This document shows positions 11,951 through 62,251 of a stretch of DNA of 64,000 nt, piece by piece (position 1 is the stretch's first letter; each line of letters opens with the position of its first letter). The translations under genes were made by a program, and so were the position numbers. This stretch comes from Eledone cirrhosa (lineage: Eukaryota), in assembly GCA_964016885.1 (NCBI GenBank), contig OZ024740.1, positions 358,918,001-358,982,000 of the forward strand. The letters run 5' to 3'. Under the pieces are notes generated by a model that searched no databases, was not told where the DNA came from, and was given only the letters and a program-made list of their open reading frames with translations.

Positions 11951-12169
11951 GCTTTTGTTTTTCTTTTTGATGTGGTTGACCGTGTTTTATTATGCCTGCT
12001 ATTGTTTTGTACCTCACCCCGTTTTATTTATTCAATTTATTATTATTATTTCCTCAAAGAAGCTTTCTAGATTGCATAATTGCTATTAATATATTTTTGA
12101 TTCAATTGAGTGTCTTCTTTCCTTGCAACGTTGGGATTTGTACAAATATGAGAAATAAATACTATAATA

Positions 12170-12340
12170 TTTGTTTCTACGTTTGGCACAAGGCCAGCAA
12201 TAACCCAGTACATTACTGGTACTTTATTTTATCGACCCAGTAAGGATGAAAAGCAAAGTTAACCTCGGCGGGATTTGAATTCAGAATGCAAGGGCCGTAA
12301 CTCTATGCGTCAAAGCATGGCGTCCGACCCTCTACCAATA
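12170..12340 (-). mobile_element. Nin-domain tRNA SINE
   Basis: tactttattttatcgacccagtaaggatgaaaagcaaagttaacctcggcgggatttgaa core. Confidence 0.8.
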
Positions 12341-13324
12341 CCATAATAATATGTCCCGATTGTAGTGGGTTGGTAAATGTCATTACAAGATAGCACTAAT
12401 TCATTGTGACTAATGGAGATAATTATTTTATGTAATTACTTGAAATGCATTTAAATGAAATAATTGTAAAATACTCTTTTAAAAAGGGTAGAATTTATTT
12501 TCAAATATTTGTTTATTTGAATATTCTCTATCAATATAAATAGCACTCAAAGTAAACAATCGAGAGGAAGATAGAGGAAAGGTTAAAATGTTATTATTAG
12601 ACAATAACTATATCTCCGGAAGCTAGAACTAGATTTTTTTCTGGGAAAAAAACCCAGTAAATGTCACTTTCGACGGCACAAGAACATAATTAAAAAGTAC
12701 TAAAGAAATTATCTTTTGAAGACTAATGTGAAAGCTAACTATGTCTAAGAGAGTAAAGATAAACATGCTTACTCAATTACTTTTTCAGGAAGTAGATCTA
12801 TGATGAAAAATATTCCGGCCATACCATGCCCCCTATTTGTTTCAGGCACTAGCTAAATTTATTCAATGTCTCTTTTTGTTACTTGTCTACTGAGGATGAT
12901 TTTGTCTGTGATATCTAACAGATGACGGAACTGATTGAAGGGTCTCAGTCCTAACGATTTTAATATGAAATATTAATTACTTTAAATAACGTATCGAAAA
13001 TGATATTGTGAATTCGTCAATATTGTGAATTCGAGGCACATGCCCACATTTTTTCGGAAGGTTTGTAATTAAATCAACCAAAGTACCAGATAACTATTGA
13101 TCTTAACTACTCATAAAAGATCAAGGATAAATTCAGGTATAATAACATAGGCGAACAAATGGTCGTATGCTTAAGAAGTCCGCTTCTAACAACGTGGCTT
13201 TGAAAAGTGTTTTTCTCCTATAACCTCAAATAGACCAAACCATTGTGAGGGACACATTATTATAGTACTGATCAATGGAAACTGTACTGAAAAACATGGT
13301 ATATGAATGTATATGTATATAAAA

Positions 13325-15156: not shown

Positions 15157-15810
15157 GAGATTTGAAGAATGTGCATAATTTTATATTTGAGTAGTATTTC
15201 ATAGTAAACATCTATTTCGATCATTTTATTTGTTTCAATAATAGTTTGGTTATTTCCATGTTGTGTATAGGCTATGGCTTATCTTATACAGACTTTCTGA
15301 CACACTGCATCACACCGTTAGATGATATGGTGTTTAGGGATTATACCTTGTCTGGGTCGTTCGCCTTGGGGAGTTTATTGTTCATTAGACGCAAAGAAAT
15401 AAGATATTTTATGCATAAACTACATATAACGACTGCAGGTTAATAATATCTGGGTATCGTATACCAGTGAATTGTACAAGTCTTCATTCGCGGAATGTAG
15501 GGATGCGTGTCGGTAGCGAACTTAACGTAAGTTATGAGTTGGGGTTACCTGTGAGTTCAACGTTATTTTCTGTACTTTGATTGCAGGTTAGGGCAATATA
15601 TATATGTATATATGTATTTATATATATATATATATATATATAAAGAAGGAAGAGTAGTAAGGAACCAGGTGGACCATAACGCACCAGAGTACTCAATAGG
15701 AAAATGGGGGGCGGGGGTTAATGAGTGTGGGAGTGAAGAAGTGTTGATGAAGATTTAAAGGAATTATATATATACACATATATATATATATACAAGAGCT
15801 GAAAGAAAAT

Positions 15811-15985
15811 TATTTTCTACTTTTGGCATAAGGCCAGCAATTACCCCAGTGCATTACAGGTACTTTATTTTATCGACCCCGTAAGGATGAAAGGCAAAAT
15901 TAACTTCTGCGGGATTTTAACTCAGAACGTGAAGGGCCATAACTCTATGCTGCAAAGCATGGTGTCTGGCGCTCTACCGATTCTG
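15811..15985 (-). mobile_element. Nin-domain tRNA SINE
   Basis: ttttatcgaccccgtaaggatgaaaggcaaa core. Confidence 0.8.
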
Positions 15986-20936: not shown

Positions 20937-21006
<70 letters not shown>

Positions 21007-21007
21007 C

Positions 21008-21245
21008 AAAACGTATGACCCCGACGGCAGAGATCAAGCCGTTTCGACGGCTATTTCTGGACTAACGGCAGAGCTCAAGCCGTTTCGACGACTATTTCTG
21101 GACTAAATTTAGTCCAGAAATAGCCGTCGAAACGGCTTGAGCTGTGCCGTCGGGGTCATACTTTTTCCTATTTCCCACTCTACTACCCTAGGTATTGAGT
21201 ACTCAGGTGCGTTATGGTCCATCTGGTTCCTTACCACAATTCCTA
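21008..21245 (+). mobile_element. (TA)n-embedded fold-back insert carrying 3' half of a hammerhead (Penelope pLTR-like)
   Basis: Inverted arms centred at ~21107; GAAA-cggc...gccg-TC-ggggtc at 21129-21157; ~41-bp duplication in left arm; tail homologous to 15657-15700 (minus). Confidence 0.65.
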
Positions 21246-21274
21246 TGTATGTGTGTATATATATATATATACAT

Positions 21275-22286: not shown

Positions 22287-22572
<286 letters not shown>

Positions 22573-22637
22573 TCGGTTTCAACACACGTTTTCAAATAAA
22601 GAATCTTGCTAAACAAATTCAGAAACGAAATATATAT

Positions 22638-22753: not shown

Positions 22754-22758
22754 GATTA

Positions 22759-23238
22759 TATGAAATGATTACAAAGAAGAATATACCGTTAAAACCTGTT
22801 TATATAAGAAAGCACCTACATACGTTTCGCCCGAAAAGGGCTTCCCAGGGGCATAACACTCCGCTGGGCAGGCGGCGCAAATAAACATCTGTAAACCAAC
22901 TATGCATCTCAGACCCTGCTCGAATTGACAATAGTAAAGCAGCACCCACAAAATAGTAATGGGAAACACCATCATGTGGACGGGTAATGAGTAGTAGGGG
23001 GAAAATTATTCAAACACCGGCCAGAGTTACTCCCCTTGCTCTATGGCAAAAACAACACATGTGTTTGAACGAAGAATGAACTTTGATGTAGTTTTAACCT
23101 TAAAATCCCTCCCGAGTCATGTACTGAACATTTTTTAGTCTTCTATGCCCTTGAGAAGCTCTTTTCGGCGAAACGTACGTAGGTGCTTTCTCATATAAAC
23201 AGGTTTCAACGGTATATTCTCCTTTGTAATCATTTCAC
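22759..23238. mobile_element. Fold-back insert with ~95-bp arms, each carrying a hammerhead-like motif
   Basis: Right arm gccc-TTGAGAA-gctcttttcggc-GAAA-cgtacg-TA-ggtgc (23147-23186); left arm is a diverged reverse complement. Confidence 0.7.
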
Positions 23239-23398
23239 TTGTAACCGCTCTGCTTATATTCTTGCCCGCTAGATATGAACGCTTCTAATATTTAACCCTG
23301 TATGCACAAACTATTGGCAACTAACTATATGTTTCGCTTATCTCTTCTCTCTCTCTCGATAATTAAATATTCTATATATATATATATATATATATATA

Positions 23399-23790: not shown

Positions 23791-23865
<75 letters not shown>

Positions 23866-24060
23866 TGTGGGATGTTCAAAGCATTCATATGCGGTAGGCC
23901 GTTCGAGCACTCGATGACATAGCAGAGTATAATATTACATAAGAAACAGAGAATCGGTGGTGCGACGAATTAACATTTATTAGACATATTACAATGATCG
24001 AACCTGACTAAATTGCAAGATTAATCGTCTTAATCTTGGAAAACCTGTTTCGAAAGATTA

Positions 24061-24157
24061 AGACGTATCTGAGGATCTTGCGATTTCAGAGTCAGGTTCG
24101 ATCATCGCATCGATCCTGCCTCGAGTTGGTCGCCAGAGAAACGATTGTAATATGTCT
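24061..24157 (+). ncRNA. Type I hammerhead with extended stem II, inside fold-back insert 23931-24207
   Basis: agacgtat-CTGAGGA-tct..gcgat..gtcgc..aga-GAAA-cgattg-TA-atatgtct (8-bp stem I). Confidence 0.78.
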
Positions 24158-24259
24158 AATAAATCTTAATTCGTCGCACCACTGATTCTCCGTTTCTTAT
24201 GTGATATATATATATCCTCTTTGGATTTTAGTCTTCAAATTTATTATTATTACTAGATA

Positions 24260-24372: not shown

Positions 24373-25062
24373 AATAAATGTAATCTGAGTTTTTCGAAAT
24401 TCGATTCGTTTGCAACTATGCAAACAAGCCTCAATTTTATAGCCATGTCAATAGAATAAACACTTCATTCTGTTCGCATGCCAACATAAGAGCAAGAATG
24501 AAATGTTCATTCTACTGACATGGCTATAAAATTGAGGCTTGTTTGCATAATTGCAAACGAATCGAATGTTATTACTAACATTCGAAAAACTCAGATTACA
24601 TTTATTGTATTCAGCCATGCAGAGCGAAATTTTCTTTTTTATTTGAATTTGGCAAAGCCGTCCATTTATCGCTCGTATACAGGAAACTGACTGGCCAGTC
24701 TGCTAATATGCAAATCTGGCTGATCAGTGGATCTGCTAATATGCAGATCTGACTGATCAGCCAGTCTGCTAATCAGGCCGATCATTCACTGTGTATTTTT
24801 GAAAATACCATGTTTTCACTAGCTCTGACAGTTTGGCAGGTGAACAGTGAGCTGTACTGATGAAGGATGATACCCAGAAACATTAGTGTCTGCAGTTCTG
24901 TTCGCATGCCAACATAAGAGCAAGAATGAAGTGTTCATTCTACTGACATGGCTATAAAATTGAGGCTTGTTTGCATAATTGCAAAAGAATCGAATGTTAT
25001 TACTAACATTCGAAAAACTCAGATTACCTTTATTGTATTCAGCCATGTAGAACGAAAATTTT
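24373..25062 (+). mobile_element. 428-nt hammerhead unit present ~1.4 times, plus inverted 5' arm, in (TA)n
   Basis: ttctgttcgcatgccaac at 24468 and 24896; 24373-24470 is reverse complement of ~24495-24607. Confidence 0.85.
24849..24898 (+). ncRNA. Type I hammerhead ribozyme
   Basis: gagctgta-CTGATGA-aggatgataccca-GAAA-cattagtg-TC-tgcagttc. Confidence 0.82.
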
Positions 25063-25145
25063 TTTATATATATATATAGAACAAGAAGTGTAAGTCAAAA
25101 GGTTAAAATTAACTTCGTTTATTCATATTCGCTGCAACACAAACT

Positions 25146-28900: not shown

Positions 28901-28913
28901 GATATAATAAATA

Positions 28914-29340
28914 ATAATATTAAAATAATTGTTTCTACTTTTGGCGCAAGGCCAGCAATTACCCAGTACATTACTTGTACTTTATTTTATCGACCCCGTA
29001 AGGATGAAAGGCAAAGTTAACCACGACAGGATTTGAACTCAAACCGTAAAGGGACGTAACTATGCTGGAAAGCATGGCGTCCAACCCTCTACTGATACTG
29101 CCAATTCACCGTCCTTTATAATATTAAAATAATTGTTTCTACTTTTGGCACAAGGCCAGCAATTATCCCAGTCCATTACTGGTACTTTATTTTATCGACC
29201 CCGTAAGGATGAAAGGCAAAGTTAACCTCAGCGGGATTTGAACTCGGAATGGCATGGACCGTAACTCTATGCGTCAAAGCATGGCGTCCGACCCTCTACT
29301 GATACTGCCAATCCACCGCCCTTTATAATATTAAAATAAT
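28914..29340 (-). mobile_element. Two tandem full-length Nin-domain SINEs
   Basis: Copies ~28926-29114 and ~29130-29321 with A box (tggcagtatcagtagag) and B box (gagttcaaatcc); ataatattaaaataat occurs three times as flank. Confidence 0.88.
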
Positions 29341-31737: not shown

Positions 31738-31815
<78 letters not shown>

Positions 31816-31883
31816 GTAGGTCCCCCCGGGTTGAGTCGGGGATAACCACAGTAAGTAAGGTACTCAATACATGGCAGAGTAAA

Positions 31884-32011
31884 ATATATTTATTGTATAG
31901 AAGGAGCTTCTACAGGACTAGTACTGTTTCATTCAGATGAAATCTTCAGAGCTTCCTGAAGATTTCATCTGAATGAAACAGTACTAGTCCTGTAGAAGCT
32001 CCTTCTATACA

Positions 32012-32021
<10 letters not shown>
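31884..32021. mobile_element. Perfect fold-back insert in (TA)n containing a hammerhead (31949-32001, +)
   Basis: ~66-bp arms, 6-nt loop; gagcttc-CTGAAGA-tttcatctgaat-GAAA-cagtactag-TC-ctgta-gaagctc. Confidence 0.8.
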
Positions 32022-33775: not shown

Positions 33776-34765
33776 TAAACATGTGGCCCTTTAGAGTAAC
33801 TTTAGTACTCGCTCCTACCACATGTAATATAAGAAATATACCATAGAGTTCTTATGTTATGCAAGGTTTAATGAAGGGACGTAGGTCAGTGCTTACGGTG
33901 TGTGGCACGTGATCGCAAGGTCTTGCGTTCAATTCCCAGCGGCGCATTCTTTTCTCAAATAAAACACTTTATTTCACGTTGCTTTCTTCAGCCCTCCCAT
34001 ACAATGAGTTGTATCTGGGATTCAAGGGCTAGACTTTTTAGGCTGAATCTTCATGGGAACTACGTTATGTGTGCATGCTAGGTGAATTTCACGTTAATTT
34101 CTCGATTAGATTCTACTGTTGGTCGAAAAGTCTCCTACTTGCAAATATTAGATCTTCCCATTGTGTGAGGAGGAATAGATATCATGGAGAAAAGCAATTG
34201 CTGCCATTCATTTAAGAGACATTGTGGCTGGTGGAATGAAAGAAGGGATTTATCCTTAGACCGGAGCACTCCCATGAATGTTTGCAATAGAGTGGACTGC
34301 TCTAACAGTGACCACGAACCAGATGGTGGCCTAAAGCCCAATACTGATCTAAGAATATATCCAAGTATCCCGTTCAATAATCAGTCTATCAAATTTTAGA
34401 ATTTTACTCACGAGATTTTCGTCAAGCTTATTGTAAATGACACTTGCTCAAAGTGTCACGCAGTGGAATAGAATCCGAAATGACGTGGTTTCTAACAATC
34501 TTCTAAACCATAGATTTATATCAGAGCCGGATAATCCAGATAGAATTTAAGACGATATTATAATATTCTATGTTGATTGTAGTTAGTCAACCTACAATTT
34601 CTCAAATTATATGTTTTCAAAGGAATGAAAGCTAAAATATTAATAGTGAAATTAACTATGCTGTCATCTAAATAATGATTCAATTGGTATTTCTAAATTT
34701 GCCGTCATCGTTCATTATCTTTATATGAACATTTATAAGATGGTTCTACAAAAATAATGCTAATC

Positions 34766-34819
<54 letters not shown>

Positions 34820-34936
34820 ATGGAGGCGGTAAAAACCAGTTAGACCATTACTCACCAGAGCACTTGATACTTGGTGTAGTAGAATGGGTAATATATATAT
34901 AGTGGTAGAATGGGTAATATATATATATATCTATAT

Positions 34937-35589
34937 ACTATTAATAATGAGTTCAAAACTCAGGCAGTCCTTTACAATGAAATATCTCAAAGAAAGAAGT
35001 ATTTCTGAGCCGTGTAATACAAGTTAATATAAATTAACTTGTATTACACGGCTCAGAAATACTTCTTTCTTTGAGCTATTTCATTGTAAAGGACTGCCTG
35101 AGTTTTGAACTCATTATTAATAGTATCACTGCTCCTTTTTGTAGAGCTAATTGTAGCCTCATATAAACGGCTGTTATTTCTAGCAGCACGAGTATGCGGC
35201 AGCTAGACACTAGATAACCATGTGTGTAAAACCATGTGCCTTAAACAGTCTTTTTAAATATTTTGAAGTGAAACATACCAATTTTTTTAGTGCTTGCTGA
35301 GGAGATCTAAATGCGGCATTCTTTCACTTTTTCATTTTTCGAAACATATTTGGATTTTAAGGTTTAAACCTGTCTACGGAACAGGTTTGATTTTGAAATT
35401 TAAATTTGTCCAAGCACCACGGCCATTTGCCAATATGCTTTGTTTTTATTGATTTATTATTTTAAATCGAGACAGGCAAACTGTATTATTATAATTAGTA
35501 TTTTTCAATCTAGCTAACTTAGTCATTTACAATTCAAACACAGATATGTTGGTATTTGTGTTTATCAAATATATTAATTCATATTAACT

Positions 35590-35594
<5 letters not shown>
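34937..35594 (+). mobile_element. 550-nt hammerhead unit with ~90-bp inverted 5' arm, in (TA)n
   Basis: Near-perfect hairpin 34937-35125; attaacttgtat at 35033 and again at 35583. Confidence 0.82.
35290..35417 (+). ncRNA. Type I hammerhead with long stem III
   Basis: gtgcttg-CTGAGGA-ga..aaatg..cattt..tc-GAAA-[~28-bp imperfect hairpin incl. aaacctgt/acaggttt]-GTC-caagcac. Confidence 0.82.
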
Positions 35595-35624
<30 letters not shown>

Positions 35625-35632
35625 GAATGGGT

Positions 35633-35666
<34 letters not shown>

Positions 35667-35674
35667 AAATTATA

Positions 35675-35705
<31 letters not shown>

Positions 35706-35713
<8 letters not shown>

Positions 35714-37801
35714 GACGTAAAATAAGAAAATATTTTTTTAAAAAAATTTTAAAAAAAATTTTTTTCTTACTTAAATTTTCACTCCAACTAATTAGTTTCT
35801 GCAATGGGATAAAGACAGTTATGTAATCCAACTGTCGAGAATTCATTGCGTCATCAGGAAGTCTATTCTCAGTTAAGTCTCCAGGCAATGCGCGGACACT
35901 GGCGGCTCATATAAAAATAATAATAATTCGGTAGATCGAACAGCTTGCGAGGACTGAATTCTATGTACCGAAATTCTCACTGCTTCAAGTCAAATGGCCG
36001 ATTCTAAAGAATCAATCACGTGACACAGAGGCTAGTTAGAAGGAATGGGATGGTAAGATGACTGACGCCTACTAACACCCCAAAAAAAAATTTTTTTAGA
36101 AGTGGTTTTGACAAGTTTGCTCGACAAATCAGTGATTTGGAGATAAATATAGATAATTTAATATATCAACTAACATAAGCGCACAGATGCACGCCCATGC
36201 CAGCAAATACACAGGTTATGTCATAGTACCTAGGTGGTTCAATGCAGGAGAATGCAGAACAATAATATAAAGGACGTAAAATAAGAAAATATTTTTTTAA
36301 AAAAATTTTAAAAAAAATTTTTTTCTTACTTAAATTTTCACTCCAACTAATTAGTTTCTGCAATGGGATAAAGACAGTTATGTAATCCAACTGTCGAGAA
36401 TTCATTGCGTCATCAGGAAGTCTATTCTCAGTTAAGTCTCCAGGCAATGCGCGGACACTGGCGGCTCATATAAAAATAATAATAATTCGGTAGATCGAAC
36501 AGCTTGCGAGGACTGAATTCTATGTACCGAAATTCTCACTGCTTCAAGTCAAATGGCCGATTCTAAAGAATCAATCACGTGACACAGAGGCTAGTTAGAA
36601 GGAATGGGATGGTAAGATGACTGACGCCTACTAACACCCCAAAAAAAAAAAAAATTTTTTTAGAAGTGGTTTTGACAAGTTTGCTCGACAAATCAGTGAT
36701 TTGGAGATAAATATAGATAATTTAATATATCAACTAACATAAGCGCACAGATGCACGCCCATGCCAGCAAATACACAGGTTATGTCATAGTACCTAGGTG
36801 GTTCAATGCAGGAGAATGCAGAACAATAATATAAAGGACGTAAAATAAGAAAATATTTTTTTAAAAAAATTTTAAAAAAAATTTTTTTCTTACTTAAATT
36901 TTCACTCCAACTAATTAGTTTCTGCAATGGGATAAAGACAGTTATGTAATCCAACTGTCGAGAATTCATTGCGTCATCAGGAAGTCTATTCTCAGTTAAG
37001 TCTCCAGGCAATGCGCGGACACTGGCGGCTCATATAAAAATAATAATAATTCGGTAGATCGAACAGCTTGCGAGGACTGAATTCTATGTACCGAAATTCT
37101 CACTGCTTCAAGTCAAATGGCCGATTCTAAAGAATCAATCACGTGACACAGAGGCTAGTTAGAAGGAATGGGATGGTAAGATGACTGACGCCTACTAACA
37201 CCCCAAAAAAAAATTTTTTTAGAAGTGGTTTTGACAAGTTTGCTCGACAAATCAGTGATTTGGAGATAAATATAGATAATTTAATATATCAACTAACATA
37301 AGCGCACAGATGCACGCCCATGCCAGCAAATACACAGGTTATGTCATAGTACCTAGGTGGTTCAATGCAGGAGAATGCAGAACAATAATATAAAGGACGT
37401 AAAATAAGAAAATATTTTTTTAAAAAAATTTTAAAAAAAATTTTTTTCTTACTTAAATTTTCACTCCAACTAATTAGTTTCTGCAATGGGATAAAGACAG
37501 TTATGTAATCCAACTGTCGAGAATTCATTGCGTCATCAGGAAGTCTATTCTCAGTTAAGTCTCCAGGCAATGCGCGGACACTGGCGGCTCATATAAAAAT
37601 AATAATAATTCGGTAGATCGAACAGCTTGCGAGGACTGAATTCTATGTACCGAAATTCTCACTGCTTCAAGTCAAATGGCCGATTCTAAAGAATCAATCA
37701 CGTGACACAGAGGCTAGTTAGAAGGAATGGGATGGTAAGATGACTGACGCCTACTAACACCCCAAAAAAAAAAAAAAAATTTTTTTAGAAGTGGTTTTGA
37801 C
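35706..37801 (-). repeat. Left (inverted) arm of ~562-bp tandem array, ~3.7 units; hammerheads at 35781-35862, 36340-36421, 36904-36985, 37463-37544
   Basis: Reverse complement of right-arm unit; visible differences only in A/T homopolymer lengths. Confidence 0.97.
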
Positions 37802-40800
37802 TTAACTGAGAATAGACTTCCTGATGACGCAATGAATTCTCGACAGTTGGATTACATAACTGTCTTTATCCCATTGCAGAAACTAATTAGTTGGAGTGAA
37901 AATTTAAGTAAGAAAAAAATTTTTTTTAAAATTTTTTTAAAAAAATATTTTCTTATTTTACGTCCTTTATATTATTGTTCTGCATTCTCCTGCATTGAAC
38001 CACCTAGGTACTATGACATAACCTGTGTATTTGCTGGCATGGGCGTGCATCTGTGCGCTTATGTTAGTTGATATATTAAATTATCTATATTTATCTCCAA
38101 ATCACTGATTTGTCGAGCAAACTTGTCAAAACCACTTCTAAAAAAATTTTTTTTTTTGGGGTGTTAGTAGGCGTCAGTCATCTTACCATCCCATTCCTTC
38201 TAACTAGCCTCTGTGTCACGTGATTGATTCTTTAGAATCGGCCATTTGACTTGAAGCAGTGAGAATTTCGGTACATAGAATTCAGTCCTCGCAAGCTGTT
38301 CGATCTACCGAATTATTATTATTTTTATATGAGCCGCCAGTGTCCGCGCATTGCCTGGAGACTTAACTGAGAATAGACTTCCTGATGACGCAATGAATTC
38401 TCGACAGTTGGATTACATAACTGTCTTTATCCCATTGCAGAAACTAATTAGTTGGAGTGAAAATTTAAGTAAGAAAAAAATTTTTTTTAAAATTTTTTTT
38501 AAAAAAATATTTTCTTATTTTACGTCCTTTATATTATTGTTCTGCATTCTCCTGCATTGAACCACCTAGGTACTATGACATAACCTGTGTATTTGCTGGC
38601 ATGGGCGTGCATCTGTGCGCTTATGTTAGTTGATATATTAAATTATCTATATTTATCTCCAAATCACTGATTTGTCGAGCAAACTTGTCAAAACCACTTC
38701 TAAAAAAATTTTTTTTTTTTTTGGGGTGTTAGTAGGCGTCAGTCATCTTACCATCCCATTCCTTCTAACTAGCCTCTGTGTCACGTGATTGATTCTTTAG
38801 AATCGGCCATTTGACTTGAAGCAGTGAGAATTTCGGTACATAGAATTCAGTCCTCGCAAGCTGTTCGATCTACCGAATTATTATTATTTTTATATGAGCC
38901 GCCAGTGTCCGCGCATTGCCTGGAGACTTAACTGAGAATAGACTTCCTGATGACGCAATGAATTCTCGACAGTTGGATTACATAACTGTCTTTATCCCAT
39001 TGCAGAAACTAATTAGTTGGAGTGAAAATTTAAGTAAGAAAAAAATTTTTTTTAAAATTTTTTTAAAAAAATATTTTCTTATTTTACGTCCTTTATATTA
39101 TTGTTCTGCATTCTCCTGCATTGAACCACCTAGGTACTATGACATAACCTGTGTATTTGCTGGCATGGGCGTGCATCTGTGCGCTTATGTTAGTTGATAT
39201 ATTAAATTATCTATATTTATCTCCAAATCACTGATTTGTCGAGCAAACTTGTCAAAACCACTTCTAAAAAAATTTTTTTTTTTTGGGGTGTTAGTAGGCG
39301 TCAGTCATCTTACCATCCCATTCCTTCTAACTAGCCTCTGTGTCACGTGATTGATTCTTTAGAATCGGCCATTTGACTTGAAGCAGTGAGAATTTCGGTA
39401 CATAGAATTCAGTCCTCGCAAGCTGTTCGATCTACCGAATTATTATTATTTTTATATGAGCCGCCAGTGTCCGCGCATTGCCTGGAGACTTAACTGAGAA
39501 TAGACTTCCTGATGACGCAATGAATTCTCGACAGTTGGATTACATAACTGTCTTTATCCCATTGCAGAAACTAATTAGTTGGAGTGAAAATTTAAGTAAG
39601 AAAAAAATTTTTTTTAAAATTTTTTTAAAAAAATATTTTCTTATTTTACGTCCTTTATATTATTGTTCTGCATTCTCCTGCATTGAACCACCTAGGTACT
39701 ATGACATAACCTGTGTATTTGCTGGCATGGGCGTGCATCTGTGCGCTTATGTTAGTTGATATATTAAATTATCTATATTTATCTCCAAATCACTGATTTG
39801 TCGAGCAAACTTGTCAAAACCACTTCTAAAAAAATTTTTTTTTTTGGGGTGTTAGTAGGCGTCAGTCATCTTACCATCCCATTCCTTCTAACTAGCCTCT
39901 GTGTCACGTGATTGATTCTTTAGAATCGGCCATTTGACTTGAAGCAGTGAGAATTTCGGTACATAGAATTCAGTCCTCGCAAGCTGTTCGATCTACCGAA
40001 TTATTATTATTTTTATATGAGCCGCCAGTGTCCGCGCATTGCCTGGAGACTTAACTGAGAATAGACTTCCTGATGACGCAATGAATTCTCGACAGTTGGA
40101 TTACATAACTGTCTTTATCCCATTGCAGAAACTAATTAGTTGGAGTGAAAATTTAAGTAAGAAAAAAATTTTTTTTAAAATTTTTTTAAAAAAATATTTT
40201 CTTATTTTACGTCCTTTATATTATTGTTCTGCATTCTCCTGCATTGAACCACCTAGGTACTATGACATAACCTGTGTATTTGCTGGCATGGGCGTGCATC
40301 TGTGCGCTTATGTTAGTTGATATATTAAATTATCTATATTTATCTCCAAATCACTGATTTGTCGAGCAAACTTGTCAAAACCACTTCTAAAAAAATTTTT
40401 TTTTTTTTTGGGGTGTTAGTAGGCGTCAGTCATCTTACCATCCCATTCCTTCTAACTAGCCTCTGTGTCACGTGATTGATTCTTTAGAATCGGCCATTTG
40501 ACTTGAAGCAGTGAGAATTTCGGTACATAGAATTCAGTCCTCGCAAGCTGTTCGATCTACCGAATTATTATTATTTTTATATGAGCCGCCAGTGTCCGCG
40601 CATTGCCTGGAGACTTAACTGAGAATAGACTTCCTGATGACGCAATGAATTCTCGACAGTTGGATTACATAACTGTCTTTATCCCATTGCAGAAACTAAT
40701 TAGTTGGAGTGAAAATTTAAGTAAGAAAAAAATTTTTTTTAAAATTTTTTTAAAAAAATATTTTCTTATTTTACGTCCTTTATATTATTGTTCTGCATTC

Positions 40801-41464
40801 TCCTGCATTGAACCACCTAGGTACTATGACATAACCTGTGTATTTGCTGGCATGGGCGTGCATCTGTGCGCTTATGTTAGTTGATATATTAAATTATCTA
40901 TATTTATCTCCAAATCACTGATTTGTCGAGCAAACTTGTCAAAACCACTTCTAAAAAAATTTTTTTTTTTTTTTTTTGGGGTGTTAGTAGGCGTCAGTCA
41001 TCTTACCATCCCATTCCTTCTAACTAGCCTCTGTGTCACGTGATTGATTCTTTAGAATCGGCCATTTGACTTGAAGCAGTGAGAATTTCGGTACATAGAA
41101 TTCAGTCCTCGCAAGCTGTTCGATCTACCGAATTATTATTATTTTTATATGAGCCGCCAGTGTCCGCGCATTGCCTGGAGACTTAACTGAGAATAGACTT
41201 CCTGATGACGCAATGAATTCTCGACAGTTGGATTACATAACTGTCTTTATCCCATTGCAGAAACTAATTAGTTGGAGTGAAAATTTAAGTAAGAAAAAAA
41301 TTTTTTTTAAAATTTTTTTAAAAAAATATTTTCTTATTTTACGTCCTTTATATTATTGTTCTGCATTCTCCTGCATTGAACCACCTAGGTACTATGACAT
41401 AACCTGTGTATTTGCTGGCATGGGCGTGCATCTGTGCGCTTATGTTAGTTGATATATTAAATTA

Positions 41465-41471
<7 letters not shown>
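37799..41471 (+). repeat. Right arm of ~562-bp tandem array, ~6.5 units; hammerheads start at 37816, 38377, 38942, 39504, 40065, 40629, 41197
   Basis: Periods 561-568 bp measured between CTGATGA cores. Confidence 0.97.
37816..37897 (+). ncRNA. Type I hammerhead ribozyme, representative of 11 identical copies
   Basis: acttc-CTGATGA-c(gcaatg..gacagtt..aactgtc..cattgc)a-GAAA-ctaattag-TT-ggagt; predicted cut after 37892 (GUU). Confidence 0.88.
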
Positions 41472-41511
<40 letters not shown>

Positions 41512-41524
41512 GTAGAACACATTA

Positions 41525-41697: not shown

Positions 41698-41867
41698 GTG
41701 TGTGCGTGTATGTATATATATATATATACCTGTGTGTGCGTGTATGTATATATATATATATATACCTGTGTGTGCGTGTATGTATATATATATATATATA
41801 TCTGTGTGTGCGTGTATGTATATATATATATATGTGTGTGTGTCTGTGTGTCTGAGTGTGTGCTTGT

Positions 41868-41979
<112 letters not shown>

Positions 41980-42535
41980 GTGTGAGTGTGTGCGTGACTT
42001 TGCATGAAAAAGAAAAGGAAAGCGTAAGAAAGTGAGTGGGCGATTGAAGAGGAGCGACGGTGGAACAGAACAAAGTATTTTATATGTTTCTCTCAATTTC
42101 TCGCTTATTGACAACCACATATAATATTACTTAATACTATATTCCCGGCTTTTAAAACGTAGAAACGTATAACTTCCTTTAATGGGTGATCATGATAGAA
42201 TATTTAGCTTCACACTGGAAATAGACAAAATATAGCACTAATGATTAATATAGATGTTTGATTGAAATCCTGTTTCAATTCATGCAATGGCGACAGGCAT
42301 TCGGCCAAAAACGGCTGAATTGCTCGTTAATACTTAATAATAACGAGTGTCTGCTGAACCTCGAAGCTGACAGCCAATGACCATACATCTTTTTCTTTGA
42401 TAATTTGATAATTTACTGCTATTGTATAGGTGCTCAGCATCACACAAATCAGTTCAGTGGAACTGTTTCAATGCCATCTCTGTTTACGTTATTTTCCAGT
42501 AACCAAGATAACTCAACATTTCAAAGATGGTATGC

Positions 42536-42594
<59 letters not shown>

Positions 42595-42595
42595 G

Positions 42596-42698
<103 letters not shown>

Positions 42699-46443: not shown

Positions 46444-46562
46444 GTAAGTTTTTTAAACTTTTAACATTGTTCAACTGTTTATCACCTAAACAACAGAGCA
46501 TCGAAATAAATGTCTTGCGAAATTAAGTTTCATTACCCCCACTATAAATACTAAACTACACA

Positions 46563-46750
46563 TAATTGTTTCTACCTTTTGCACACGGTCAGAAATTATC
46601 CCAGTGTATTACTGGTGCTTTATTTTATCGACCCCGTAAGCATGAAAGGCAAAGTTAATCTTGGTGGGATTTGAACTCAGACCGTAAGGATCGTAACTCT
46701 CTGCTGCAAAGATCGGCGTCCGGTCCTCTACAGATACTGCCAATTCACCT
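46563..46750 (-). mobile_element. Nin-domain tRNA SINE
   Basis: ttttatcgaccccgtaagcatgaaaggcaaagttaa core; head ...tactgccaattcacc. Confidence 0.8.
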
Positions 46751-46795: not shown

Positions 46796-49032
46796 GATGG
46801 TGCGCAGATGGTGTGCAGGAGTATGGGATTAAAAATATAACATCCCGAAACTGACAACCATGTTCAATGACTGCTTGATGTCAGGTGAGGTACCAGAGTG
46901 GTTGATAAAAGGTACCACAGTTCTGGTAATGAAAGACCGAATCAAGGGTAATGATGTTACCAACTATAGACCTATCACATGTCTGTCCGTAATGTGGAAA
47001 CTGTTGACAAGCTTTATATCTGAGGAAATCTACCATCACCTCCACACAAACAACTTGTTACCAGACGAACAGAAAGGATGCCGAAAGAAGTCCCGTGGTA
47101 CAAAGGACCAGTTACTTATTGATAAGATGGTAATGAGGAATTGCAAGAGGAGACACACTGGTCTTGCCATGGGATGGATAGACTACAAAAAGGCATTTGA
47201 CATGGTGCCTCATTCTTGGATCACCAAAAGCCTAGAGATCTTCAAGGCGGCAGATAACATCAGACAGTTGTTGGGCAAAAGTATGAAGTCCTGGAAAACA
47301 GAGTTAAGATCAGCTGGAGAATCCTTGGGAGGCGTGAAGATAAAGAGAGGTATCTTTCAGGGAGATAGTCTGTCCCCTCTGTTGTTTGTCCTTGCCCTGA
47401 TGCCCCTGACCATTATACTGCGAAAAGTGAGAGCAGGATACAAGTTGGGAAAGGGAGAGCTTACCATCAATCACCTCCTCTTCATGGACGATCTTAAGCT
47501 CTTCGGGAAGAGTGAGAAGGAGTTGGATGTGCTTGTTGAGACTGTCCGTATTTTCAGCAATGATATATGTATGCAATTTGGTATTAGTAAGTGTGGAGTC
47601 CTTGTGATGAAGAGGGGTAAATTGAGCAGAAGCAACGGAATCCAGGTACCAACAGGTGAGATGATAAAGGAAATTGACACTGAAGAAGGATACAAGTATT
47701 TGGGTGTTCTGGAGGCTGATGACATCAAGAACCAAAAATGAAGGAATTGATAAGATCTGAATACATTCGGAGAGTAAGGAGCGTATTAAAGTCACATCTG
47801 AACAGTAGGAATGTCATAAGTGCAGTAAATTCCCGAGCTGTGTCTATTATTAGGTACAGTGCGGGAATTCTGAGATGGAATGTTGCTGAACAAAAAGAAA
47901 TGGATAGGAAGCTATTGACTATCTACATGTTCCACAAGAGGAGTGATGTCGATAGACTCTACTTAAGGAGATCTGAAGGTGGAAGAGGTCTTATCAGCAT
48001 AGAGGACTGTGTTCAGATGGAGAAAAACAACCTACACAAATACGTGACTGATAGTAAGGAGCCAATGCTCAGAATTGTACTGAAGGAGAGGACAATAGAC
48101 CAGGGGATGTCCAAGGAGGAAATAACAACAAGGAGAAAGAGCAGCCTTCATGAAAAATCCCTTCATAGTACCTTCTTTGAGAAAACTGAATTCAGAGATC
48201 CACAGACATGGAACTGGTTGAAAAGAGGAGACCTTAAAAAGGCTACAGAAGGAATGCTAATGGCTGCGCAAGAGCAGGCTATCAAAACGAAGTGGTTGAA
48301 ACACCATATTTACAAGGAGGAGGCTAGCCCACTGTGCAGGATCTGTGGAGAGAGAGAGGAGACTGAGGTTCACATTGTATCCGAGTGTAAAGACCTAGCC
48401 CAGACTCACTATAAGGGCTGGAGACATGATGTGATGGGCAGGATGATCCACTGGCACCTATGCAAAGTAAACAATTTACCACATTCTGAGAAGTGGTATG
48501 AGCATAAGCCAGAGTCGGTGATAGAAAACGATCAGGTGAAGGTGCTGTGGGATTTTAGGATACAGACGGACAAGAAACTGGAACACAATAGACCTGACCT
48601 GGTGGTTTTGGACAAGGAAAAAAGATCGTGCCTGATTGTGGATGTGGCCTGCCCATTCGATACGAGAGTGCAAGAGAAGGAGAGAGTGAAAATTCACCGA
48701 TACCAGGACTTAAAGTGGGAGGTAAAAAGGATTTGGCACTGCCATGAAGTCAAAGTGGTCCCGCTTGTCATAGGCGCACTAGGTACTATCTCAAAAAGTT
48801 TCCAGGGATGGTTAAAGAAAATTGGCCCCGCCACGCTTTTTGGAACGCTTCAAAAGGCATGCTTGCTGGGAACAGCAAGAACCCTCCGATACGTCCTGAA
48901 TATCTGAGGCTGCAGGTAGTGGCTTGATATTCATTTCAACAAACTTTCCATTTAACTAACATCAATGACTGAGACTCAAAGAACAATAATAATAATAATA
49001 ATAGTAGTTATAATAATAATAATAATAATAAT
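46796..49032 (+). mobile_element. R4/Dong-like RLE retrotransposon, 5'-truncated, young, (TAA)n tail
   Basis: RT-zinc finger-RLE coding region followed by short 3' UTR and (taa)n. Confidence 0.92.
46860..48907 (+). pseudogene. RT + CCHC finger + restriction-like endonuclease, one evident frameshift at ~47738
   Basis: [71 protein letters not shown]. Confidence 0.93.
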
Positions 49033-49284
49033 GATTTCTTTATTAAACACAAGGGTTTACATAAAGTAGACATTAAGGACAGTACAGGATAATACGGGGC
49101 AGTACAAATGGGCATTTCTGCGTGTAAAAAAAACAAGAAACAGAGGATGTAATAATAGAACAATGAAAAAATTACCCAATAGGGGGGAGACTTCCGAGGG
49201 ACATTCGTGGAGAAAGCCCATTAAAAAGCCACAGTGACTCTGACCACCAGGGCAAGTGCCCTCTCCCAGTTTTCCACCTTTAAT

Positions 49285-52272
49285 TTACAGACACATACTC
49301 AGAGTAGGCCCATTCACTCGGGCCTTTCTTGCCTCTCTCACCCATCTTTCAACAAAATGCTGGGAAGAGAGCACTTCCCTTTCTACCCTGATTTTCCTTT
49401 TCAAATGAAATTTGAAAAAGTCAATCAGGGCATCACCGAAGGGGTAAGTGCTCGTCTTCAGCCCTTTCAAACGTGTCCACCATACTATCTCTTTCGCCAT
49501 GGTCACCAGACTGATAAAAACTGCCTGCCCTTCCCTGCTAAAGGAAGAGGGCGGGGCAATCCTCACGATGGACTCAGATGATAGCCGGATCCGTCCTACA
49601 CGCGACAGCAGGTGTTCGACATAAACCCACAAGTCAGCAATTTTCGGACACTGGACGAGTGTGTGCAGGACGGTTTCGTCACCCTGCGCGCATCTCGGAC
49701 ATGCCCGGCTGACGGCACATCCATGCCTGTAAAGTTTATCTCGAACAGGCAAGGCTCCTCGGTAGCACTGCCAGGCCAGAGATTTCTGGAAGTTGTCCAT
49801 AGGCCTCGGCGTCGCTCTTCCCCTCCACTAATCCTCTATAGAACGCTGAGGTGGAGTTTCCACCGATCACATTGCCCGATTGGTCGAGGGCTGTGAGCGC
49901 CTGAAGACATTCCAGTCTCCAGGCACTCCCTCTCGGTCTTCGCTTTACCCAGGATTGCAGCTCCATCTAGGAAACGAGCTGGGGAAATACGTGTTTAGCA
50001 AACGGCGACCACACCTGATCACCGTCGAGGAAGAGGTGGAGATGTCGTAGCCTGAGCGCGTGTCTGCGCATCATCAGCCACGGCATGCCCAGCCCTCCAC
50101 GTAGCGGGTGTTGACAACAGATGGACCGCCTGACTATCGGAGCGCGTCCCTTCCACAAAAAGCGAAAGAGCAAACGTTCCAGAGCAGTCAGGCGGGGCTT
50201 AGGACAAGGTACGACGGTCAGGCGGTAGCAGCTGACAGACGCGATGTACGCGTTGGCCACCTCCGCTCGACGTTTCAGGGATAGCTTCCTCTCCGCCCAT
50301 TTCTGGGTGAGAGAAGCCACCCTGCTCGTCACCTCGTCCCAGTTTTTGTCCGTCTGGATGTCCGGACCGAACCAGACCCCTAGCAATTTAAACGGTCCGT
50401 CCGTCCAACGTCCGACGACGCTGTTGGACGGCATAGACCTGCCTCTCCAGGTGCCGAGCTGCAGGCCCACTGACTTTTCCTGGTTGATCATTGCTCCTGT
50501 CACCGCTTCGTATTCTCTTAGTTTGTGCCGATCGCCTCGATGTGTTTGGCGTTCGACACGACTACGGTGACATCGTCCGCATATGCTGACACGGATCTTC
50601 CGCATCCTAGTTCGCGCGGGACGCCCCTCAACGTCTCCAGTTTGTGCAGTAATGGCTCGAGAGTCAATACGTACAAGAGGGACGAGAGGGGACATCCTTG
50701 GCGGACCGAGCGCATGATGTTGAACGGTTCCGAAAGGTGACCGTTCACTCTCACCACAGAGCAAATGTCGCTGTGCATGGCAGCGATCCAGCCTCTGAAG
50801 ACGGGCCCAAAGCCAGCCGCCCTCAGGACTGCCGCTAGGTAACGATGGTCGACCCTATCGAAAGCTTTCGACTGATCTAAATTGATCAAAGATCAACCCG
50901 TGCCAGGTTCTCTAGATACCTTCTCTACGATGTATCGCATGAGGTGGAGGTTGTCGTGGATGGATCTGTCGGGAATAGCGCATGTCTGCGCCTCTCCCAC
51001 CAGACCACCAACGACAAGCGCCAACCTCTTTGCTAGCACCTTGGCCAAAATCTTGAACTCTGTGTTTAGCAGAGTTATGGGTTTGAAATTATCTACATAC
51101 ATTTGCCCGGAATCGAGTAGCATGCGCCCGTCGTGGTCCACCAAAGACCGGATCTTTCCATGACGCGCCTCCGCCACTCGGGCCTATTGAACGGCTTTCG
51201 TCCCCTCGTGTCTGAGAGCACGCACCCTAGCTCTGACAACGCAGCCTTCGTGCTTTGCATTGAATAATTGGTCAAGGGCCAATTTCGCCGCAAGTACGTC
51301 GGTCGCGATGCCTTTGCTAAGCGCCTCGTCTAATTTTCTAACTAGTTCTCCCTCTGCTCTATTTTTCTCTATTGCTAAAGCCTTACTAAACCTAATGGAC
51401 TCTATTCTAATCGCTCTTTTCAGAGCAAACCACCACTTGTTGTTGACGTTGGCCCCCGTCAACGCCCGCTTAACTAGTTCGCTAATCGGGTCTCTGTAGG
51501 CCTTGCGCGCTGGTAAGGACGCGTTTAGCTTCCAGTAGCCGGGTCCTCGTCTATGAAGCCTATCTAAGTCAAGCAGACAGATCACCGATTTTTGGTCCGT
51601 GTAGCTGACTATCTTGAATTGTGGACAGCCTATGCTAGACCTATCTATTTCCCTACAAAATACTCTATCTAGATATGATCTGTATGACCCTATGCGATTT
51701 GTTCAAGTCCACATTTGTACATTCGGGAAATGCAATCATTACCTGTCAGACAGTTCAAAACGCCTGAGCAGGTTGGTGAGGCTCTTGCACCCTCCTCCCC
51801 TATCCGCTAATCCCACACAGTACCAGCGTGCATCTAAGATACCGTTCCAGTCGCCCACTAACACTAAAGAACGGGACGTTCCAAGAAAGGTCTCCAGACG
51901 CCGGAAGAAATCAGGCCGCCCTGCTCCTGTCGGGGCATATACGGCCACTTGCCTGAAAGCTTGCCCGTCTCCGCTCGTCACGTCTAGCACCACCAACTTA
52001 CCTTCTGGGTCCGGGAAGATGGCCCGTATGGCGAGATCCAAACCTCTCCGAAAAAGCACAGCAACTCCTCCCCCCGATCCCGGACGGCTGGGAGATGCGT
52101 ACACATCGTAGCCGCCGAAGATCGGTGCGAAGGCCCGTGCTTCGGAGATTCTGGTCCCGCTGATGGCCACTACATCTATATTTAGTAACCTGAGGTCGTT
52201 GAGCAGGTGGCCCTGCTTCCATGACGACCCCAAGCCACGCGCATTTATGCTGCCTATTCTGAGTGAGGTCAT
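49285..52272 (-). pseudogene. ORF2 (APE-RT-zinc finger) of Tx1-like copy 3, frameshifted with RT N-terminal deletion
   Basis: GSINARGL, VGDWNGILD, YWKLN, VRQGCPLS, AYADD, CPRCAQGDETVLHTLVQC; KSPGLDG block absent near 51100. Confidence 0.92.
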
Positions 52273-52306
52273 GTTGAAATGGAGTGGAAAAGATGGGAAA
52301 GACCAC

Positions 52307-53857
52307 TTACCTTACTTCTCGTAGAGGAAGTATGGTGTGTCCATCCTTTTCACTGCTTGTGGCCTCCTCCGGAAGGATGTCTTTATAAATCCTCCTGGAG
52401 AGTGTTTGTCGGAAGTCTCCGATGTCTTTGGGGAATTTTTGTTTTAGTGTCGTGTACGTTTTCTGTGTGATGTGAGTGATTTGTATGTGTGAATGTGGTG
52501 TGAAATTTTTAGTTGTTGTGTAGTCTTTTTCTGTGATGCTGGTGTTGTGTTGCATGTAGTGTAATAATTGGTTTTTGTTCAAATTTAATGCTGTGTAGTG
52601 TGTATCGTTTTGGTTGTTTTGTTTTGTTTGCGTTTGTTGTGGGTTTGTTTCTGTTACGCTTTTTGGTGATTTTTGTGGTGTTGGTGATGGTGGTGTTGGG
52701 GTTAATGATGGTAATGGTGTTGGTGTTTGTGGTGATGGGGTTGGTGATGCTGGTGTGGATGGTGGCATATCTGTCTTAACTTTCTTGTTTGCTAATTTAT
52801 TTGTTTCCCTCTGTATTTTGTTTTTGGAGAGGGAGGGAAGAGAATTTTTTCTTTTTTGGTTTCTTTTTTTCTTTTTTCCTGATACCGTTTCCCACTCCTC
52901 GTCGTCACAATCTGTCTCCAGTTGCGATAAGCCGGGGAGTGGAAAATCCTCCAGAGGCGTTGGTTTTGGTTGTGGCGTGGTGGATGGTGTAGGCGCTGGT
53001 GCTATTTCTGGGGCGTTGGGTGGTGGTGGTGTTGGTTTTGCTACTGTTGCTGGGGTTGTTGCTGTTACAGTTGCTTCTGTTGTTGCTGCTACAGTTGTTG
53101 CTGCCATTTCTGTTGCTGGTGATGTTGATGGTTGAGTCACTGGGGTGGGTAAGAGAGGTGGTCTCAACCTTTTAGCCTGAGGGCAGAAAGCCCTTAGGTG
53201 GTTTCCTTCACCACAAACGACACACCTTGGTCTTCTGCCCTCGACGATTACGGTGAGGTGGCTGCCGTCAGTGAGATCTATTACCTCTGGGAACTCCTCA
53301 ATGCTTTTATGGTCCGCTTGGATCAGGAGCTCCATCCCAGATCCTGACCTGTTCTCCTGCTTTTCTTTTGCTATTTCTATTATTTTGGTGTTGACCTCGA
53401 TGCCGGCGAGGACGGCAGCCATTAGCCAGGGAATTTCGATGGCCGGTGGAACGTGGGTCACCCTGATCTTCACAAGTCTCTGGCCACAATAGCTTGGGAT
53501 GAGTGTGAAGTCGTCACTTCTTAATGGGACCATGGAGTGTTCTCTGGCCTCCTGTGGTGTTTCAAAGAACACGTACACGGTTCCATACTTCTGCCCACGT
53601 CTGACGTGGGTTTTCTTTGCCCACACATGTCCCAGAGCTTTTTGGATTTGGGACTCAGATGCCCGTTTCACTCGGCGCGATTTTATATTTATTGTCCGAT
53701 AAGACACGGTGCATAGGCGACGTTGCTCAATTTTATTAGGTGGGGGGGTGAGGCTGACCCTGTACCCATCTTTCTTTACCATTTCTTTGGCTTCGTCTAA
53801 TTCTTCCTGAGTTACCTGGATCGCTTCGCACGTTTTTGCTACTCTGGCAAAACTCAA
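52307..53857 (-). CDS. ORF1 gag-like nucleic-acid-binding protein (open 516 codons; true start uncertain)
   Basis: CX2CX4HX4C knuckle CVVCGEGNHLRAFC; RRM-like N-terminus; EWETVSGKKKKR; Pro/Thr-rich tail. Confidence 0.8.
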   Translation of the reverse strand: MSFARVAKTCEAIQVTQEELDEAKEMVKKDGYRVSLTPPPNKIEQRRLCTVSYRTINIKSRRVKRASESQIQKALGHVWAKKTHVRRGQKYGTVYVFFETPQEAREHSMVPLRSDDFTLIPSYCGQRLVKIRVTHVPPAIEIPWLMAAVLAGIEVNTKIIEIAKEKQENRSGSGMELLIQADHKSIEEFPEVIDLTDGSHLTVIVEGRRPRCVVCGEGNHLRAFCPQAKRLRPPLLPTPVTQPSTSPATEMAATTVAATTEATVTATTPATVAKPTPPPPNAPEIAPAPTPSTTPQPKPTPLEDFPLPGLSQLETDCDDEEWETVSGKKKKRNQKRKNSLPSLSKNKIQRETNKLANKKVKTDMPPSTPASPTPSPQTPTPLPSLTPTPPSPTPQKSPKSVTETNPQQTQTKQNNQNDTHYTALNLNKNQLLHYMQHNTSITEKDYTTTKNFTPHSHIQITHITQKTYTTLKQKFPKDIGDFRQTLSRRIYKDILPEEATSSEKDGHTILPLREVR

Positions 53858-54446
53858 GGTAGTTTTCTTAATTTCATTGTTGCTGTTGTTATTATCGTTA
53901 TTTTTGCTATTGTTAATTTTAGTTTCAGTTGTTGTGTTGTGGTGGTGGCGTCAGTGGTGTTCGGTGTGGAAGAGTTCATTTTGGTTGAATTCATTTCGAT
54001 ATCATGAGTTAATTTATTTTTTTCTTTTCTTTCTGTTGTCGCTGTGGTGGTGGTGGGGGTGGTGGTTGTCGCGGTGGCGGCTCTAACACCTGCAGTCATT
54101 GGTAATAGCGGGAAATGAACGTCTGCCTGAGACAAATTTAAAATATTGCTACTGCTTACAATTCCAGTGTTGGCAAACGTAGCAATATTTACAATGGTGG
54201 TGTCGGTGTGAGGTGTTGGATTGTGAGGAAGGAGTGAATCTAAGAAAAAATTTTGTTTGATAATTATAAAAAGTTTAAATTTCGGCTCAAGGCCCCAATA
54301 TTTTTGAGTGTCCTTTTCAGAAATCAATGTATGTCCACTTATATACACTTAACAATAAAAAGTTTCCATAAATGGCAATTTTAAACAACTGAAAATAACA
54401 AACCTTTGCGGAGCTCACGATGATACGATGTATTACGTAGGTCGCC

Positions 54447-54481: not shown

Positions 54482-55469
54482 TAATAATAATAAGAAGAAG
54501 AATAAGGGAAGAAGACGCACGAGGTGGTAGAAGGTCATGAAATTGCTCCCGTAAGTTTTTGATTTTTAACATATTTAAATCAATTGTGAAATAACAATTC
54601 TTAGTACAAATGTCGCATAAACCACCGAATGATGTCCCATAAAATTTCGGATCCATATTATATTGTTATATCGCTCAAATATTCAATTTTGTATTATATA
54701 TTTTGTATTCAAAAAAAGAAAATGGTTATAAATGGAAGAAAACACCCTCTGTCTACACTATATAGAACAGCCAAATAACAGCAATTTCACCAACACCAGA
54801 AACTTGATACACCACCTATCCCATCACACTAAATGTAACACCCAGATAACGGAAATTTCACCACCACCACCATCAATCCCGGCATGATAATAATAATTAC
54901 TATTATTATTGTCTCAAATTTTAACAAAATGTTTAATTCCAATTTTACGGGAATATGTCAACACAATATATATTAAACATACGAACACAAACTCATAGAT
55001 ACTACATAACACAAAACCAAGTAACCACAACGCCACCGCCGCCACCACCCCTACCATCATCTTGCTACCACTATCCCATCGCCGCCGCCACCACTCCTTC
55101 ATTGCTACCACCACTATTCCCCTGTTAACTTGAGAGAGAAAGGGGAAGGTGGCGGTATCACTAGACAAGGGAGAGGCTAGCAAAAGATATAAATAGATTG
55201 ACTTAGTGACCTGGCCACCGGCCAAACGTCAACATCAACAACTATGGGACTGCTGGCTCACCCCTTCCTCACCAACAATATAAAAAAAACCCGGCACCAC
55301 CACCGACATAGCCAACAACAATAACAGGCAACTACAGCAAAAAGTATATTATATTATTGTAATGCACTGGGTGATTGCTGGCCTTGTGCCTGGAGTGGAG
55401 ACAATTATTAATAATTTCATTCTTAAGCCACGCAATGCTCACATTAAGGAACCACTCATGATAATAACA

Positions 55470-59444: not shown

Positions 59445-59491
<47 letters not shown>
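55470..59491 (+). mobile_element. Full-length R4/Dong-like RLE retrotransposon, inactivated by stops/frameshifts
   Basis: Single long ORF remnant 55656-59301 ([37 protein letters not shown]); (taa)n tail 59447-59491. Confidence 0.93.

Positions 59492-59493
<2 letters not shown>

Positions 59494-59495
<2 letters not shown>

Positions 59496-62202: not shown

Positions 62203-62251
<49 letters not shown>

Follow-up and report, generated by a model that had tools for sequence, protein, structure and literature searches.

Between two (TA)n runs of the window, the whole 64-kb stretch of DNA analysed here, lies a 550-nt unit that is most probably a solo, non-autonomous derivative of a Penelope-like element (PLE), of the non-LTR retrozyme type, inserted by target-primed reverse transcription and copied in trans, with two start sites inside the unit. 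The unit is non-coding, has a GC content of 31.6% and, read on the circle, contains no ATG-initiated ORF longer than 26 codons on the plus strand and 28 codons on the minus strand. Since an ORF encoding RT and GIY-YIG is absent from it, the unit, as judged by its sequence, is not an autonomous PLE. It belongs to a permuted, circular or tandem, multi-copy family, as its relatives cross the same end-to-start point in sequencing reads. Its main oddity is the unusually long hairpin predicted for its ribozyme.

The insert consists of two arms joined head to head, a truncated inverted copy (34935-35037) and a full copy (35033-35594), whose 5' ends meet at a 6-nt palindrome (Table 1). Positions 34935-35028 and the reverse complement of 35033-35126 are identical at 93 of 94 positions, with a 4-nt spacer (35029-35032) between them. 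The first-pass annotation had thus recognised a real inverted arm, but had let it begin at 34937, 2 nt to the right of its true start at 34935. From the sequence, the overlap of the arms could be either a microhomology or a snap-back point. Both 3' ends face outward into (TA)n and terminate in GTAT; they are termed A and B hereafter and lie 82 nt apart on the unit. For PLE insertions, an inverted 5'-truncated copy, a junction palindrome and a tail at one end have been described (PMC3846280; PMC8557442), and (TA)n targeting has been reported for Hydra and many Naiad PLEs (PMC8557442). The present insert shows the same arrangement, with (TA)n on both flanks, and a related contig from another sample (X4, see below) likewise ends in (AT)n. 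The one-sided tail of 82 nt compares with published tails of 30-40 bp; end B was encountered again in X4, while end A was seen in this copy alone. In the predicted fold of the circle, the tail pairs with 35520-35533. The 3' module contains a 12-bp hairpin (35536-35563) about 30 nt ahead of end A and is a candidate RT-binding region.

Table 1. Features of the 550-nt insert and its target, in window coordinates.
Feature	Position	Strand	Description
Left target	34878..34934		(TA)n runs interrupted by two short host-motif copies
Left arm	34935..35037	-	5'-truncated inverted copy, ~102 nt; ends in (TA)n at tailed end B (=35126)
Arm-joining overlap	35032..35037		self-complementary AATTAA; arms head to head
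Right arm	35033..35594	+	one full 550-nt unit + 12 nt; ends in (TA)n at tail-less end A (35594 = 35044)
'Tail' of 82 nt separating end A from end B	35045..35126	+	among the deepest-covered parts in relatives
Type I hammerhead motif	35290..35417	+	core 35297-35303 and 35341-44; predicted cut after C35410
Extended stem III	35344..35409	+	29 pairs
3' module	35432..35563	+	common to diverged subfamilies and a second organism, judged by read depth and loose ends
Right target	35592..35710		(TA)n with third host-motif copy; 562 array starts at 35711

The short host motif was found at 34878-34915 and at 35619-35635 (copy at 35622), with its first half at 41511 (41509-41517). Its copies lie around the (TA)n runs bordering both the 550-nt element and an adjacent array of 562-nt units, and may stem from duplication of the target or from a small tandem array of older date. 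The (TA)n cluster is common to the two insertions, as annotated in the first pass; one small (TA)n array received both. A tRNA scan gave no match and thus no sign of a tRNA-SINE head, and a bacterial promoter scan remained at chance level with models that are bacterial and not relevant to the host.

The insert ends with its own start: a 12-mer occurs on the plus strand at 35033 and 35583 and nowhere else in the window, and once on the minus strand (35017). A terminal overlap of at least 12 nt was obtained in none of 3000 dinucleotide shuffles of the insert, in which the maximum was 10. The inverted arm reads through the end-to-start point: of the 21 positions of 35037-35017 on the minus strand, 20 agree with 35574-35594, the end of the unit. 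Both observations had been made in the first pass and hold, as does the deduction of a circular or tandem template with a period near 550, given that other copies cross the same point. However, this point is not where a circle would have been closed. The X4 contig continues through 35583/35033 as far as 35126 and then enters (AT)n, so that the former junction is, on sequence grounds, ordinary internal sequence and not a ligation junction; a circle made by the hammerhead would close at 35410/35411. A reverse transcriptase stop after exactly one turn of the circle (one unit plus 12 nt) was considered and dropped as evidence, since a neighbouring insert with a period of 428 comprises one unit plus ~147 nt and the 562 array comprises many units.

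Relatives were sought in 12 sequencing runs, none of them recorded as RNA, and part of the unit was present in nine of these, across five studies. Alignments cover four runs: X1, possibly the window's own sample; X4, another sample of the same study; X5, from another organism; and X10, raw RAD reads of an independent study with the same species label. Matches to the unit amounted to 949 contigs in X1, 29 in X4, three in X5 and 3023 reads in X10, mostly 85-99% alike, and the unit therefore represents a diverged multi-copy family. Copies crossing the end-to-start point, the check proposed with the first-pass annotation, were found in 85 of the 3023 RAD reads, distributed over six joints (20 + 10 + 13 + 33 + 8 + 1) with 15 start places, and in one X4 contig. 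An exact period of 550 is held by one X10 read and the X4 contig only; 538-551 is implied by the remaining joints. From the unit end, the X4 contig continues through 35033-35126 without a difference and enters (AT)n exactly where the left arm ends. A further X4 record (record 10, 35062-35195) bridges 35126/35127, i.e. end B, and the cleavage site is bridged by X1 record 3, X4 record 11 and X5 record 17. Among the aligned records none covers the whole unit, and neither a tandem source locus nor a circle of the exact subfamily was seen. Two strand-switch joints in X10 (42 and four reads) indicate that fold-backs recur in the family. Exact patterns gave no match in metagenome contigs and none in viral contigs.

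Read depth peaked at about 35432-35526 and 35052-35089; the lowest values fell on 35128-35146, 35204-35241 and the hammerhead core and stem II. This distribution bears on the reading, unlikely in our view, that the unit is the pLTR or UTR remnant of an autonomous PLE joined by an internal deletion, with no separate non-autonomous family. Partial-match reads do run into other sequence, with loose ends at 35190, 35339 and 35439-35445 of 170-244 reads each, and retrozymes have been derived from pLTRs by Li et al. (10.64898/2026.07.22.740005). But X10 depth stays above zero throughout 35033-35583 (about 70 in the lowest bin), the sequences beyond the loose ends look, by eye, like diverged window sequence, and the unit lacks an ORF. 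A search for an autonomous partner with six exact 9-10-mers against the Naiad, Chlamys and Hydra consensi (supplement of Craig 2021) gave three hits, all in unrelated context, and the Octopus Naiad consensi and Hydra-1_Obim, compared at their 3' ends, showed no resemblance to the unit by eye. Of the six window ORFs scanned, none contained GIY-YIG and three contained RVT_1.

The ribozyme motif of the putative non-autonomous element is a type I hammerhead with the core CUGANGA (35297-35303), GAAA at 35341, the cleavage triplet GUC at 35408-10, which conforms to an NUH site, and the G10.1-C11.1 pair (G35304-C35340). Stem I comprises seven Watson-Crick pairs (35290-96/35411-17). The perfect stem I, the GUC site and a cut after 35410 were thus found as had been claimed. 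The hammerhead descriptor matched the plus strand only and none of 5000 shuffles of the unit. Stem III, previously put at about 28 bp, forms 29 pairs when folded at minimum energy (z = -7.0), and none of 500 shuffles was equally stable. In a fixed register it comprises 22 Watson-Crick and six G-U pairs and one U-U, with no A-C mismatch. A ratio of six G-U to zero A-C has a chance of 1/64 if decay is strand-blind, and this points to selection for stem III pairing on the plus RNA strand. Among the 40 of 202 variant rows listed, five of the seven variants in stems I and III keep or improve pairing, while those at 35372 and 35414 break a pair unless compensated. In the local fold, stems I and III form with pair probabilities of 0.89-0.94 and 0.77-1.0, respectively. 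In contrast, the stem II region (35304-35340, 37 nt) offers two closing pairs, a 3x1 loop and five distal pairs, with a predicted ensemble probability of about zero. In two loose-end consensi, the terminal sequence could pair into a longer stem II (3' strand only), which hints that other subfamilies have a firmer one. A tertiary contact between loops 1 and 2 was not obvious by eye. Rfam gave no match in the 64 kb at gathering thresholds; at E values up to 10, 33 sub-threshold matches were obtained in 34700-36400, none of them a hammerhead, and the top ones were miRNA models on the fold-back. The plus-strand circle folds at z = -5.9, compared with -2.3 for the minus strand (30 shuffles each), and is predicted to be 65% paired and branched.

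By nearest-neighbour prediction, adopting the active fold costs the hammerhead of the unit 5.4 kcal/mol. The corresponding values for six neighbouring motifs are 3.0 (562 unit), 3.5 (24069), 6.5, 7.0, 8.6 and 15.4, so that the motif ranks third of seven. In the 550-nt circle the predicted cost rises to 8.9; the core pairs with an upstream U-tract and stem I is also lost (P = 0.003). Because these energies ignore tertiary stabilisation, activity is predicted to be lowered yet possible. The first-pass annotation had expected the ribozyme to work as a monomer, unlike its neighbours. The long stem III indeed suits a monomer and, as modelled, most probably makes dimer pairing unnecessary, but stem II closes with two pairs, the cost exceeds that of two neighbours and the core is predicted to be sequestered in the circle, so that the claim as worded is supported only by half. 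On the modelled energies, a ribozyme with so weak a stem II is probably slow or protein-dependent, and off in the circle, and the sequestration of the core suggests an off state there. In a fungal PLE hammerhead, a long helix III permits monomer cleavage, and the Serpula hammerhead cleaves as a monomer, at 1.97 per min in 10 mM Mg and 0.16 per min in 1 mM Mg (PMC4209133). Among predicted retrozyme dimers of Xenopus, one of nine was reported to cleave and eight were not (10.64898/2026.07.22.740005), and the anole PLE, the hammerhead of which required protein, could insert in vitro without that motif (PMC11167929).

The insertion can be accounted for by a series of steps in which (i) a tandem source locus would be transcribed in the plus sense; (ii) cleavage by the hammerhead after 35410 may yield a monomer that is then closed into a circle by ligation, both reactions having been shown for coral, mussel and axolotl retrozymes (PMC7229834), or an uncut multimer may serve as the template; (iii) a PLE RT/GIY-YIG protein supplied in trans would bind the conserved 3' module and nick both (TA)n strands, by extension from the anole PLE, in which both strands of the target are cut and then extended, the tail being the part that lies between two internal start sites of the RT (PMC11167929); (iv) cDNA synthesis would start at A (35594 = 35044) and B (35126), where GTAT would provide a few bases of pairing to the target; (v) the copy from A, as the arms show, ran for 562 nt, across the intact cleavage site and B, and that from B for ~102 nt; (vi) the two copies would have been joined head to head via 5-6 nt of the palindrome at 35032-35037, which leaves an inverted repeat with a one-sided tail. 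Since the right arm exceeds one unit in length and is unbroken at both the cleavage site and B, the copy from A needed a circle or a template longer than one unit. A linear monomer cut at 35410 would template only 184 nt from A, which leaves a sealed circle or an uncut multimer as the template.

More speculatively, the unit may stand for an animal retrozyme family in which the usual short, dimer-dependent stem III has been replaced by a selected helix of 29 bp, with monomer cleavage and a circle switched off by pairing of the upstream U-tract with the core, and whose insertion, together with the 428 and 562 neighbours, records a two-start-site PLE mechanism round circular RNA; we consider this scenario tentative and less likely than not. 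If true, it would be direct genomic evidence for PLE proteins reverse-transcribing retrozyme circles, as opposed to local tandem duplication only.

Somewhat less probable than the remnant reading is an event at the DNA level, in which a satellite unit was spread by rolling-circle replication of circular DNA or by repair synthesis and captured at fragile (TA)n, with the hammerhead as a passenger that is possibly dead. The weak stem II and the disfavoured active fold, as predicted, would agree with such a passenger, and repair can yield perfect fold-backs, but the G-U pattern and the folding are strand-specific and the fixed end B was reused in X4. Moreover, in four fold-backs with intact or near-intact cores the hammerhead sense points outward to (TA)n, like the 3' ends of retro-copies. 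A long-read fold-back chimera at 35030 is very improbable: palindromes beside microsatellites do assemble poorly, but the arms are not identical, with differences in the loop and at one of 94 positions, 8-9 nt of the left arm are otherwise found only 550 nt away, other fold-backs of the window have diverged to 63-97% identity, and fold-back joints of other family members are seen in short reads. The size, the hammerhead and the self-paired circle recall an endogenized viroid-like RNA replicon, an origin we practically dismiss, as the hammerhead occurs on the plus strand only and not in both polarities, the GC content is low, the circle is 65% paired and branched, the unit forms a dispersed multi-copy genomic family with PLE ends (949 X1 contigs) and viral contigs gave no exact 21-mer match.

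The preferred reading, a non-autonomous PLE derivative, places the unit close to the metazoan non-LTR retrozymes, which are likewise non-coding, low in GC and a few hundred nt long with one type I hammerhead, for which a self-paired predicted circle and solo 'monomer' copies have also been described, and for which the PLE machinery is the proposed mobiliser (PMC7229834; 10.64898/2026.07.22.740005). The unit matches the retrozyme definition (non-coding, GC below 50%, self-paired, about 50-1000 nt, type I hammerhead), and its length falls within the 51-972 range of Li et al., but is greater than that of the experimentally shown retrozyme circles of 170-400 nt. With 1.02 units, the present copy fits the 'monomer' class of Li et al. 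rather than their 'active' class of at least two tandem hammerhead-complete units. Stem III has 29 bp here as opposed to 1-2 bp in metazoan retrozymes, and its ribozyme is blocked in the predicted circle; for most metazoan circles, a free ribozyme has been predicted.

EN+ PLEs (Hydra, Naiad clades and Adineta Penelopes, and the anole Poseidon PAc; PMC8557442, PMC3846280, PMC11167929) share the inverted copy, the junction palindrome or overlap, the one-sided tail, (TA)n and a hammerhead near the 3' end, but have an RT/GIY-YIG ORF and shorter tails (30-40, compared with 82 nt here). By eye, the core and the base of stem III are most like the Hydra-clade hammerheads of File S2 (PMC8557442), which differ in their 3-4-bp stem III and firm stem II. 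A sequence link to a named PLE family was not found with short motifs and a by-eye comparison with the consensi of PMC8557442. The fungal and protist PLE hammerheads described by Cervera & de la Pena 2014 (PMC4209133) are also of type I with a long helix III and an irregular helix II, without a recognisable loop-loop contact; however, these reside in EN-deficient telomeric PLEs, and in the metazoan ones given there helix III is either a short palindrome or missing. MRC1 and other non-autonomous Chlamys PLEs (PMC8557442) are likewise ORF-less, with a pLTR-like wrap-around, head-to-tail copies and microsatellite targets, but they occur in green algae, mostly lack canonical hammerheads and share 3' sequence with known autonomous partners. 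PLE stem III has been described as extremely short (PMC6765202), and the words 'ribozyme' and 'hammerhead' are absent from the main text of a 2026 Octopus repeat annotation (PMC13282606). In the literature searched, for the most part main texts, we found no animal PLE or retrozyme hammerhead with a helix III of this length and no 82-nt tail, and a precedent may exist. Long-stem-III hammerhead families are probably undercounted, since a hammerhead of this kind escapes Rfam and short-stem-III descriptors.

For the mobility of animal retrozymes, one proposal is that PLE RT acts on circles (PMC7229834); the alternative is local amplification from pLTRs, with the mechanism called still to be elucidated (10.64898/2026.07.22.740005). 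The insert joins a retrozyme-type unit with a PLE insertion signature and names two candidate start sites, 35044/35594 and 35126. All component ideas have been published before, and long-helix-III PLE hammerheads are known from fungi and protists.

The unit had been set apart from its neighbours in the first pass. Its sequence is indeed unrelated, and no blastn match longer than 11 nt links it to the 562 array, but it is less singular than supposed: nine of the 49 segments between (TA)n runs in the window are fold-backs, and a third wrap-around unit lies at 24374-25064. In seven of the nine, one side overhangs by a net 60-128 nt, compared with ~33 nt in the 428 unit. This third unit has a period of 428, a left-end fold-back, a hammerhead at 24857 and a ~33-nt tail; it lies between (TA)n runs and has the architecture of the 550-nt element with unrelated sequence. 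The 562 array (35711-41466) is arranged head to head, with ~3.7 units on the minus and 6.5 on the plus strand and a switch near 37800; its hammerhead sense points outward on both sides, and its right end is 118 nt longer than its left. In the hammerhead of the 562 unit, the stem II region spans 51 nt and stem III is a palindrome of 3 bp. Six more fold-backs, with overhangs of 60-128 nt, were found at 21006-21255, 22402-22629, 22754-23372, 23864-24203, 31815-32015 and 62249-62652, three of them with hammerhead motifs (24069, 31949/31956 and 62555). The overhangs 21166-21255 and 31815-31890 have, by eye, an 11-nt motif in common. A tenth inverted-repeat segment (41834-42609) was dropped as a TG/AC microsatellite artefact. 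Isolated type I hammerhead-like motifs occur beside (TA)n at 19042 (+), 43260 (-) and 61243 (-).

The window also contains decayed non-LTR retrotransposons, which we take to be L1/Tx1-like and RTE/R4-like, at 146-9700, 46833-53950 and 55656-59822, with RVT_1 in three of six scanned ORFs; one of them terminates in a duplicated 3' end, 352 nt long, with (TAA)n. A dispersed SINE-like family of ~200 nt, 80-92% identical, is present at 4090-4222, 10654-10721, 12146-12341, 15806-15985, 28902-29340, 46544-46749 and 55359-55424, and forms a tandem dimer at 28914-29340.
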